Shown here: positions 59,998-61,141 of the stretch, one piece after another
Layout of the letters: every line of letters starts with the position of its first letter
Position numbering within the stretch: the first letter of the stretch is position 1
From: a virus
Direction: 5' to 3' (one strand)
IMG/VR virus record: IMGVR_UViG_3300027908_000002
Coordinates: 17,087-81,086 of that record
DNA: 64,000 nt
Made by a program: the position numbers and the translations under genes
Notes under the pieces: model-generated
What the model was told of the DNA's origin: nothing
Databases searched by the model: none
Seen by the model: the letters and a program-made list of their open reading frames with translations, nothing else

Positions 59998-60265
59998 TTG
60001 GTTTTCAAGACCAAGTAGTACTTGCCAAATCTTTACACAATCAGTACTCGCAGAGTTCAGCCTAATCCCGATGCCTTACCGCTAGACCACGGGGCCATAG
60101 TTTTTATTGGAGGCCCCGGCTGGATTTGAACCAGCGTTCTCGGTTTGTTGCTCCGCGCCCATCATGCTTCTTATTTCTGGCTTTAGCCTTCGGGTAATAG
60201 ATTAAGCTTATTAGTTAAGCCTGACCATGACCTTTAGCCTGGATTGCGGTTACCCGCCACCCGAA
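59998..60265 (-). ncRNA. Structured RNA with a circularly permuted tRNA-like domain (Y-RNA/YrlA-like topology)
   Basis: T arm plus acceptor-CCA (60143-60108) precede acceptor 5' strand plus D arm (60096-60067); GGCCCCG/CGGGGCC 7/7 pairs; closing helices CCGA/TCGG and CGCGGAG/CTCTGCG. Confidence 0.75.
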
Positions 60266-60266
60266 T

Positions 60267-61022
60267 TTACAGGCCGAAGATATAACTGATGATCTTCTGG
60301 CCGATCTTAGTGTCTATTTTATTGATTTCCTGTTCGTTAGCCCGCGAACGGGCCTTTTTCACTGCGCGGGTGAAGTCTTCCACACGAGATAGCATATCTC
60401 CCTTGGCCGCCACTGTGATTAGCCCGGACCATTCCAGCGTAGTGATTTCTCCGACCGGTACATCTTCAGTGACAAGTTGAACCTGAGCCGGATGCTTATC
60501 GGTAGCCGGGGCCAGAGTGAGCGGCTTATTGACTTTCTTGGTCCGCGTCTTCTTCTCTTCTCTGGCCTTGAACACATCTCCGCCCTTGTCCGGGTCGGCG
60601 CGGAATCCCTTTGCCGGGTCCAGCGTCGGGATCGCCATAACAAAGTCATGAAGTTCTTTCGAGCGCTTCTCCAGTTCCAGAAGAGAAGTGGCCGGAAGTT
60701 GCGACAGGAACACGCCGTCGTAGTCTTCCAGAACCACGTCGGCGCGGGCGACCGTGTTGGCCTCTGCAACCTGATATGATACGTCAAGGCTCTTGACCAG
60801 GAAGTCGGAAATCCATTTAAGCTCCTTGGGAACCGTAGTCTGGATATCCAATTGTCCTTCTATGGTCGTCGGAGTGCCTTCTTCAAACGGTTTATAGGAG
60901 ACGGTCTTTTCCGAGAAGTGGTGCTGCTTCTTTTCGAACGTACCCATCAGTTCCGCACGCGTTTTGTCGGCCTGTGCTTTCAGGTTACCGTCCACGGCCA
61001 AAAGCTCGTGTAACTTGGACAT
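60267..61022 (-). CDS. Uncharacterised conserved protein (KLHELLAV...PATSLLELEK...RTKK...ATDKHPAQV)
   Basis: AAGGA RBS; I recall similar hypothetical proteins in bacteria and phages, family name not verified. Confidence 0.8.
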   Translation of the reverse strand: MSKLHELLAVDGNLKAQADKTRAELMGTFEKKQHHFSEKTVSYKPFEEGTPTTIEGQLDIQTTVPKELKWISDFLVKSLDVSYQVAEANTVARADVVLEDYDGVFLSQLPATSLLELEKRSKELHDFVMAIPTLDPAKGFRADPDKGGDVFKAREEKKTRTKKVNKPLTLAPATDKHPAQVQLVTEDVPVGEITTLEWSGLITVAAKGDMLSRVEDFTRAVKKARSRANEQEINKIDTKIGQKIISYIFGL

Positions 61023-61111
61023 AGCTTGATCCTTCTTTCTAGTTAATCTAAGTGTGATTGATTGGTGGAGCGACTACTTGCCAGTGGCTTTCACCGCCCC
61101 GTGACTATTTA

Positions 61112-61141
61112 AGATTAATATATACGTAGACATTGCGTCAA
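61112..61141 (-). promoter_or_regulatory. Promoter of the inverted protein plus ncRNA module
   Basis: TTGACG-N18-TAATCT. Confidence 0.6.

Follow-up and report, generated by a model that had tools for sequence, protein, structure and literature searches.

A DUF7873-linked RNA with a circularly permuted tRNA-like module in a soil phage genome: a probable one-module variant of a widespread RNA–protein pair

The stretch of DNA analysed here (64,000 nucleotides, positions 17,087 to 81,086 of the IMG/VR virus record IMGVR_UViG_3300027908_000002; referred to below as the window) is part of a CheckV-complete 99-kb virus record. On its minus strand lies a compact unit in which a sigma-70-type promoter is followed by the gene for a 251-residue protein of the family DUF7873, by a structured RNA of about 310 nucleotides (nt) and by a terminator-like hairpin. 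The RNA contains a tRNA-like body in which the 3' half precedes the 5' half and which has no anticodon loop. An earlier reading of the window (the original prediction) had taken this unit for an isolated oddity, whereas it belongs to a large family of RNAs, usually with two such modules, of which it is the one-module variant. Every element named in that prediction is present on the minus strand where it had been placed, including the acceptor with seven of seven pairs, the closing helix, the TTCGGGT/ACCCGAA helix and the GCGG-GTAA-CCGC hairpin. Its estimate of about 270 nt for the RNA was too short: the RNA reaches the U-tract at 59957, and the start coordinate of 59998 leaves out the terminator hairpin (59994–59966). 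The features of the unit are given here in the order of transcription.

61114–61141, minus strand: sigma-70-type promoter (−35 TTGACG, 61141–61136; 16-nt spacer; −10 ATTAAT, 61119–61114), read from the sequence
61023–61105, minus strand: 5' leader with a conserved hairpin (GGGGCG...CGCTCC), from comparison of the window with the relatives L002 and L003
60267–61022, minus strand: gene for the 251-residue DUF7873 (PF25283) protein, matched over its full length (Pfam E = 7.7e-68)
59957–60266, minus strand: whole structured non-coding RNA, about 310 nt, from the first base after the stop codon to the end of the U-tract
60189–60265, minus strand: 5' domain of the RNA, with the helix TTCGGGT (60265–60259)/ACCCGAA (60195–60189) around the GNRA hairpin GCGG-GTAA-CCGC (60257–60246) and hexamer repeats
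60199–60241, minus strand: 6-nt-periodic repeats (AGGCTA AAGGTC ATGGTC AGGCTT ...), from autocorrelation, found family-wide
60049–60157, minus strand: closing helix CGCGGAG (60157–60151)/CTCTGCG (60055–60049) and internal loop, from comparison with relatives
60062–60148, minus strand: circularly permuted, anticodon-less tRNA-like module, from its score with the covariance model R1 (see below), covariation and a partial match to Rfam YrlA
60143–60140 with 60071–60068, minus strand: anticodon-stem stub of the module, CCGA with TCGG, 4 base pairs (bp), read from the sequence
60135–60119, minus strand: T arm of the module, preceded by the variable region GAAC, read from the sequence
60118–60112, minus strand: 3' strand of the acceptor, CGGGGCC, paired 7/7
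60111 and 60110–60108, minus strand: U73 and CCA, read from the sequence
60107–60097, minus strand: A-rich linker, 11 nt, read from the sequence
60096–60090, minus strand: 5' strand of the acceptor, GGCCCCG, paired 7/7
60087–60073, minus strand: D arm of the module, read from the sequence
59998–60014, minus strand: anticodon-arm-like hairpin TTGGT-CUUGAAA-ACCAA, with a stem that covaries in relatives and a 7-nt loop that is kept
59957–59994, minus strand: 3' terminator-like hairpin with a 10-bp GC-rich stem, the conserved loop TAGGATACT (59994–59966) and the U-rich tract TTTAATTTT (59965–59957)

DUF7873 homologues with 31–81% identity were taken from 20 viral contigs, nearly all of which carry one to three permuted modules within 400 nt downstream of the gene (as judged by eye and with a pattern script). 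The covariance model R1, built from 24 viral modules, scores the window module, which begins 119 nt past the stop codon, at 79.3 bits (E = 5e-21). Across 100 loci (18 viral, 80 bacterial and two from metagenome contigs, designated by L numbers), one to three co-oriented modules with at least 36 bits lie 50–550 nt downstream of DUF7873 in 99; L029 is the sole locus with no adjacent R1 module. In the 142 distinct modules the T stem and the acceptor are more than 99% paired, with compensatory changes at every pair, and the D stem and the anticodon-stem stub, where the alignment register wobbles, are about 80% and 71% paired. The observed pairing scores are matched by none of 500 shuffles, and slid controls score far lower. 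The 142-module alignment was fitted to R1 and hence favours it; the seed alignment, made with plain MAFFT, gives the same picture. Further, the D stem, the anticodon-stem stub and the closing helix covary although they were not used in selecting the modules. The window module is far beyond chance, and its RNA is a genuine gene under structural constraint.

A decayed or rearranged tRNA left behind by tRNA-island recombination, or a chance resemblance to one, would agree with the frequent location of the relatives in tRNA arrays and with the weak R1 matches (19–33 bits) that occur elsewhere, which are junctions between ordinary neighbouring tRNAs. The window module, however, scores 79 bits and has a perfectly paired acceptor unlike those at array junctions, and conservation of the family extends over several bacterial phyla and many phage lineages, every helix showing compensatory changes. 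The R1 scores, the covariation and the phylum sample described below effectively refute this reading, and the probability that remains for it is negligible.

The window RNA has a minimum free energy z-score of −2.8, and a consensus fold computed from it and six relatives lends support to the 5' hairpin, to each of the four tRNA-like helices and to the 3' hairpin. The TTCGGGT/ACCCGAA helix of the 5' domain is kept in L002–L006 with little covariation, and the GNRA hairpin within it covaries. Between the 5' domain and the closing helix of the window RNA there is a small GGCU-AAA-GCC hairpin. The internal loop above the closing helix has CAACAAA on its 5' side and, on its 3' side, the repeat-type word ATTAGGCTGAA (60066–60056), which takes up the position of the would-be anticodon loop. 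Pairing in the closing helix is kept despite sequence change in six close relatives, with covariation listed for L002, L003, L004, L005 and L008, and the combination of closing helix and repeat-word internal loop recurs family-wide. The loop of the 3' hairpin (59994–59966) is given as UAGGAUACU, with the U-rich tract after it; this hairpin, whose loop is longer than 8 nt, was passed over by the terminator scan.

Across the family the RNA is 300–450 nt long, and the commonest form has two tandem modules. The usual order is hexamer-periodic repeats, module 1, two repeat words around an AUUGCUC-like spacer, module 2, a UUAAACG-like word and the 3' hairpin, with module 2 standing on a long closing helix that has a GACUGAC-type word in its internal loop. 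The single module of the window and its near relatives (L002–L006 and L008) is equivalent to this universal second module, and some Streptomyces likewise have a plain hairpin in place of module 1. Family-wide, the identity autocorrelation of the stretch between the stop codon and the first module peaks at lag 6 (z = 23) and lag 12 (z = 13.6), with no peak at lag 3; these z-scores are inflated by related sequences, but the pattern is plain nonetheless. A hairpin of at least 6 bp with a GGNTA (GGNUA) loop follows the last module at 75 of 96 loci, compared with about six of 96 in shuffles.

A second element of the 3' region is the anticodon-arm-like hairpin, which has a covarying stem and lies approximately 42–54 nt past the last module at eight loci (the window, L002, L003, L005, L008, L019, L022 and L032). 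Its loop is CUUGAAA (UGA, a Ser-type anticodon) in the window, L008 and L022, and CUCGAAA in L003; L002 (L002:3753+) has two such hairpins, about 47 and 65 nt past the module, with the loops CUUCAAA and CUGCUAA. At 11 of 96 loci ARAGORN finds a complete tRNA within 300 nt past the last module, and nine of these 11 start 41–49 nt after the module, which is the position of the hairpin. The RNA unit thus includes complete tRNAs (Asn, Lys, Arg, Glu, Asp, Thr and Leu) in the interval from the last module to the 3' hairpin (L034:7003–7075, L015:3995–4067, L009:4222–4293 and others). At L009 ARAGORN also reports a tRNA-like gene in normal order ('tRNA-???'; L009:3830–3908), the anticodon loop of which is abnormal; it lies after the DUF7873 stop codon and before the first permuted module.

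The gene order of the module, with an encoded CCA, is that of two-piece transfer-messenger RNA (tmRNA) genes. This order, together with one frame of the repeats that reads by eye as alternating polar and hydrophobic dipeptides and a weak partial cyano_tmRNA match in a relative, would suit a permuted gene for a translation-active RNA, that is, a two-piece tmRNA-like molecule with a repeat-encoded tag or a split tRNA re-joined by an RNA ligase and Pnk. The repeats, however, lack 3-nt periodicity (z = −5 at lag 3) and differ in sequence by lineage, and the acceptor identities vary freely. The third acceptor pair is C3–G70 and not G3:U70, and a full D arm and anticodon stem are present, which tmRNA lacks; there is also no anticodon loop to restore, as the stub opens into the internal loop and the covarying closing helix. 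The original prediction had set tmRNA aside on account of the acceptor, and this judgement is upheld by ARAGORN, which reports no tmRNA, and by the Rfam tmRNA model, which scores only 8.5 bits against 47. We regard a translation-active product as very improbable. A canonical or permuted functional tRNA was also considered and rejected, there being no anticodon stem-loop on the body and no call by ARAGORN or Rfam tRNA at the site.

DUF7873 gives at least 564 matches in species-representative bacterial genomes (Streptomyces, Nonomuraea, Nocardia, Abditibacterium, Planctomycetota and Clostridia among them) and occurs in 75 cultured-phage records, in all of which it is annotated as hypothetical; these include phages of Rhizobium, Gordonia, Arthrobacter, Klebsiella (jumbo phages), Ralstonia (phiRSL1), Vibrio and cyanobacteria. 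In the samples from three bacterial phyla, carriers make up approximately 5% of the genomes in two and less than 1% in the third. The RNA family is conserved from Actinomycetota to Planctomycetota. It has no entry in Rfam 15, and Rfam is silent at the window site at gathering score. No description of the name DUF7873, or of a permuted tRNA-mimic RNA with a DUF7873 partner, was found in the searchable literature, and the RNA family is apparently undescribed.

The linkage of the RNA to DUF7873 was assessed in two phyla sampled without regard to similarity to the window. In the phylum of a Planctomycetota carrier, DUF7873 is present in 19 of 301 genomes, and R1 modules lie downstream of all 19 full-length genes. 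In the phylum of L029 it is present in 18 of 401 genomes, with the RNA adjacent in ten and non-adjacent in eight, and all eight of the latter have a complete tandem two-module RNA elsewhere in the genome (53–64 bits). The one non-adjacent RNA that was inspected lies between genes for a chloride channel and a glycosyltransferase; it shows the complete architecture and has a promoter-like site of its own. Among 16 genomes of the same sample that lack DUF7873, two have any match at E ≤ 1e-9, each a single match of about 45 bits. Neighbours were clustered by all-against-all comparison of open reading frames (ORFs) at the 80 bacterial loci: the top neighbour occurs at 17 of the 80, the neighbours are ordinary housekeeping families, and no conserved gene other than the RNA lies beside DUF7873. 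A functional tie between the RNA and DUF7873 is strongly supported by the conserved adjacency and by the genome-level co-occurrence where adjacency has been lost. As there is no other conserved neighbour, DUF7873 and the RNA therefore make up a two-component unit. The original prediction had the RNA forming a ribonucleoprotein with the upstream protein; adjacency and co-occurrence bear out the linkage, and the particle itself is putative.

These data also bear on the possibility that the RNA is a cis-acting 3' untranslated region (UTR) of the DUF7873 mRNA, its tRNA-like fold serving as a signal for RNase P processing or for stability (compare the mascRNA of MALAT1) with no function of its own. 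The RNA begins one base past the stop codon with no promoter between, the two are co-oriented and adjacent in most loci, and tRNA-like 3' ends would withstand exonucleases. One clade, however, encodes the complete RNA at a great distance from the gene, where it forms a separate unit flanked by unrelated genes, and a processing signal would need far less conserved architecture than the repeats, the two modules and the 3' hairpin with its conserved loop. A purely cis-acting element is therefore unlikely in our estimation, and the RNA is a gene in its own right and not merely a 3' UTR.

At phage loci the RNA–DUF7873 pair often lies in tRNA islands or beside RNA-repair genes. On a 63-kb phage-like Logan contig (L105:6438–10186), DUF7873 and a two-module RNA are found between an RlaP nucleotidyltransferase gene (PF10127) and one for a PNKP-like kinase-phosphatase (AAA_33 + HAD_PNKP), an RNA-repair neighbourhood. 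On a tRNA-rich phage-like contig from a Bacteroidales metagenome-assembled genome (L070), a GOLLD RNA (RF02032; 165.5 bits, above gathering score) at L070:5225–5663 (+) lies directly upstream of the DUF7873 gene (L070:6001–6732), and the DUF7873-type RNA follows, so that the small gene stands between two large structured RNAs.

The original prediction likened the topology of the module to that of the YrlA Y RNAs. This likeness holds: positions 30–81 of the Rfam YrlA model (RF02553) align to 60136–60073, covering the T arm, the capped acceptor and the D arm. The score at a permissive threshold is 20.4 bits for the window RNA, against a gathering score of 69, and 28.9 bits over the full model for a Nocardia relative; no YrlA match at gathering score was found anywhere in the 99-kb phage genome. 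YrlA is encoded within about 4 kb of the Ro60/Rsr gene on the same strand (Chen et al., 2014; PMC4201824). The absence of Ro60/Rsr noted earlier for the window extends to the whole CheckV-complete 99-kb genome, in which there is no TROVE match. TROVE is also absent from four of five related phage genomes, three of those four being CheckV-complete, and from 16 of 30 bacterial carriers, and where present in carriers it is usually far from DUF7873. Among the 35 genomes checked, only two have a near placement: a 173-kb phage (the genome of L016) with TROVE at C1:87973–88971, approximately 11 kb from the DUF7873 gene, and a Nonomuraea genome (that of L033) with TROVE at C1:861549–861731, approximately 6 kb upstream on the same strand; these genomes are designated G005 and G010, respectively. 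The RNA needs no Ro60 gene nearby or in the genome.

Two genomes have both systems. In these, an R1 match of 28–31 bits, presumably the true YrlA, lies about 1 kb from TROVE, and the DUF7873-type RNA, with 53–59 bits, lies elsewhere; R1 gives 35–79 bits on the DUF7873-linked RNA family. The Ro-helix motif GNCGAAN0-1G (Chen et al., 2014; PMC4201824) is absent from the 310-nt window RNA in a regular-expression search. The sole CGAA of this RNA lies in CCCGAAGG, at about 60194, and the matches to the motif found across the family are the lineage-specific GACGAACG within the anticodon-stem region. An ordinary Y RNA of the YrlA type, partnered by a Ro60/Rsr supplied by the host and with DUF7873 as an unrelated neighbour, would account for the shared topology, for the sub-threshold YrlA matches and for the two TROVE genes at 6 and 11 kb, and phages that carry Rsr and YrlA exist (PMC4201824). 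It would leave aside the scores far under the YrlA gathering score, the missing TROVE in the complete phage genome and in more than half of the bacterial carriers, the lack of the Ro-helix motif, a conserved neighbour that is DUF7873 and not Rsr, and the separate, lower-scoring YrlA beside TROVE in genomes with both systems. This explanation is hard to sustain, and we judge it to be quite unlikely.

Among 1.8 billion representatives the DUF7873 family accounts for 2745 clusters (50% identity), all of proteins about 245 residues long. The AlphaFold2 model of the protein (predicted local distance difference test score, pLDDT, of 82) consists of four long helices, small β-hairpins and one long β-hairpin (residues 156–195). 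The long hairpin has one basic strand (KTRTKK, in which K163 is invariant) and carries the nearly invariant ATDKHPAQVQ at its tip. The homodimer prediction reached an ipSAE of 0.72 compared with 0.01 for the best control (run agreement 98%, pLDDT 88); the mark used for ipSAE is reached by 20 of 30 solved homodimers and by one of 23 solved single chains. The prediction supports, but does not show, that DUF7873 forms a dimer. The conserved arm (residues 156–182) lies outside the predicted interface, so that a dimer would display two arms. Comparisons with other proteins gave no lead: Foldseek returned no match in the PDB at E ≤ 0.001, a wide structural search gave 3kdq_A as its best match (Z = 8.8 but with a root-mean-square deviation of 7.5, which is the noise level for helical proteins), the AFDB and atlas searches returned the family itself plus a weak DUF6847 row, a sequence profile search of the PDB gave chance SNARE matches only, and PHROGs, NCBIfam and PADLOC had no match.

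The module has features expected of an RNase P substrate, among them a 7-bp acceptor stacked on a 5-bp T stem, an intact D-loop GG and a T-loop UUCRA. Within the set of 142 modules, G1–C72 is found in 123, C74 in 134 and a pyrimidine at position 75 in 129, and U at position −1 is found in the window module and in at least 61. Among YrlA RNAs, that of Mycobacterium smegmatis alone has a 7-bp acceptor; RNase P cuts it at this acceptor in vivo, and it gains CA (PMC4201824), which matches the conserved N73–C74 of the DUF7873-linked RNA. By analogy, cutting by RNase P and 3' trimming to a two-piece CCA-ended RNA, as the original prediction had proposed, is plausible.

The promoter of the window unit aligns base for base with TTGACA-N16-GATAAT of the closest relative, L002, and in both it sits 8 nt upstream of the conserved GTCAC leader start. 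It was unlisted by the consensus scan, the rule of which demands an A at position 2 of the −10 hexamer. The leader hairpin is common to the window, L002 and L003, with compensatory changes. The leader words CTTAGATTAAC and CAAGCT, which adjoin the ribosome-binding site and the start codon, resemble the repeats of the RNA to the eye, and they may be an autoregulatory site; visual inspection showed such words in leaders of the phage subfamily alone, and they are not evident in actinobacterial ones. The description of the unit as self-contained on the minus strand is confirmed by its promoter, protein, RNA and terminator, but the placement 'between tail genes' is not, because the neighbours match no tail family: searches with Pfam and PHROG profiles gave no family match for the neighbouring ORFs except for one Ig-like domain. 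The 1761-residue ORF just upstream of the unit (54033–59318, plus strand) has zero Pfam or PHROG matches, and the next ORF (59319–59957, plus strand) has the Big_3_5 Ig-like domain.

Taken together, the probable explanation, held with somewhat better than even confidence, is that the window carries a one-module variant of a widespread, apparently undescribed RNA–DUF7873 pair that would form a Ro60-independent, Y-RNA-like particle. In such a particle DUF7873 would act as a dimer and hold the RNA with its two free basic β-hairpin arms, each with the invariant TDKHPAQ at its tip. The arms might contact the invariant tRNA elbows or the 3' loop, and the repeats may provide further sites. The tip is invariant while the repeat word varies by lineage, which suggests that the arms would contact an invariant feature of the RNA (a tRNA elbow or the 3' loop) and not the repeats. 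The tRNA-shaped body would be read by tRNA enzymes: RNase P would cut before G60096, and trimming or CCA repair at 60110–60108 would leave a nicked, CCA-ended mimic, as in M. smegmatis YrlA. The most likely role, which is a guess, is in a tRNA- or translation-centred conflict or in RNA quality control, because the phage pair is often found in tRNA islands or beside RNA-repair genes. The decoy and translation-modulator roles put forward in the original prediction are pure speculation. A more specific picture, in which a β-arm dimer clamps RNase P-nicked, CCA-ended tRNA-shaped heads and this Ro60-independent machine acts on the tRNA pool, on tRNA-processing enzymes or on the ribosome, for example in phage takeover or in stress, is doubtful as it stands and is offered tentatively.

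Several observations weigh against the proposed particle. The single module of the window RNA is a poorer fit to a two-armed dimer, and the homodimer prediction is of the protein alone, without RNA. Co-occurrence of the RNA and DUF7873 would not by itself prove physical binding, and L029 and its clade make clear that their adjacency is not obligatory. A Ro60 supplied by the host is possible for this particular soil phage. NCCA is encoded in only 35 of the 142 modules (25%), and most linkers, including those of most actinobacterial modules, are 6–8-nt loops capping the acceptor; RNase P cleavage may thus not be general, and the YrlA of S. Typhimurium is not cut (PMC4201824). In a search of public runs the window sequence was found in soil metagenomes, all DNA, and in no RNA run. 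For a Streptomyces relative there is one run labelled RNA, which is probably DNA. A search with the sequence of this relative found no soil metatranscriptome contigs over its RNA; short contigs with 85–90% identity match parts of the DUF7873 ORF only (L059:6403–6645). These are a weak hint that relatives of the DUF7873 gene are transcribed in soil, with DNA carry-over possible.

To our knowledge, the bacterial tRNA mimics with a dedicated protein are essentially the Ro60–Y RNA particles and tmRNA–SmpB. A third such pair, if true, would be a new entry into the use of the tRNA shape by cells and viruses. It would assign a function to a Pfam domain of unknown function that has thousands of members, and may be relevant to the large, as yet unexplained RNAs found in phage tRNA islands. 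The pair is carried by cultured hosts and phages and is therefore directly testable.

YrlA is the closest of the known systems. Like the window RNA, it has a permuted tRNA-like domain on a long helix that replaces the anticodon arm, its gene lies on the same strand beside that of its partner protein, and it occurs in bacteria and phages. In contrast, the partner here is DUF7873 and not TROVE/Rsr, the Ro-binding helix is lacking and the Rfam score is less than half of the gathering score. The DUF7873-linked RNA is also three to four times longer, usually with two modules, 6-nt repeats and a 3' hairpin with a GGNUA loop, and genomes with both systems keep the two RNAs apart. The RNA is a YrlA in shape but is without three of the defining features of YrlA.

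The two-piece tmRNA genes of alpha-proteobacteria and cyanobacteria share the order of T arm, 3' acceptor strand with CCA, intervening segment and 5' acceptor strand, and in both cases the halves would be expected to remain paired after loss of the linker. The window RNA differs in having a complete D arm and anticodon stem and neither G3:U70 nor a tag frame, and the tmRNA models fail on it. In the permuted tRNA genes of Cyanidioschyzon merolae the 3' half also lies upstream of the 5' half; these give real tRNAs with an anticodon loop via a splicing-endonuclease circular intermediate. The order of the halves and an acceptor linker removable by RNase P and tRNase Z are common to both, whereas the RNA described here has no anticodon loop and the splicing-endonuclease pathway is not known in bacteria. 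The protein-sponging RNAs CsrB and RsmZ and the TRAP-binding RNAs carry several short, regularly spaced words in single-stranded stretches. Spaced short words are likewise found in the window RNA, and here similar words also lie near the ribosome-binding site of the partner gene; in contrast, the repeat word varies by lineage while the tip of the putative binding arm is invariant, and the tRNA-like bodies have no counterpart in those systems. Finally, GOLLD and ROOL (RF02032; bioRxiv 10.1101/2024.12.08.627333) are large ornate RNAs of phage tRNA islands that form RNA-only cages with no known protein partner. The DUF7873-linked RNA resembles them as a large structured RNA of phages and prophages that lies near tRNA genes and sometimes has tRNAs embedded in it, but it matches them in neither sequence nor structure and, unlike them, it has a dedicated protein.

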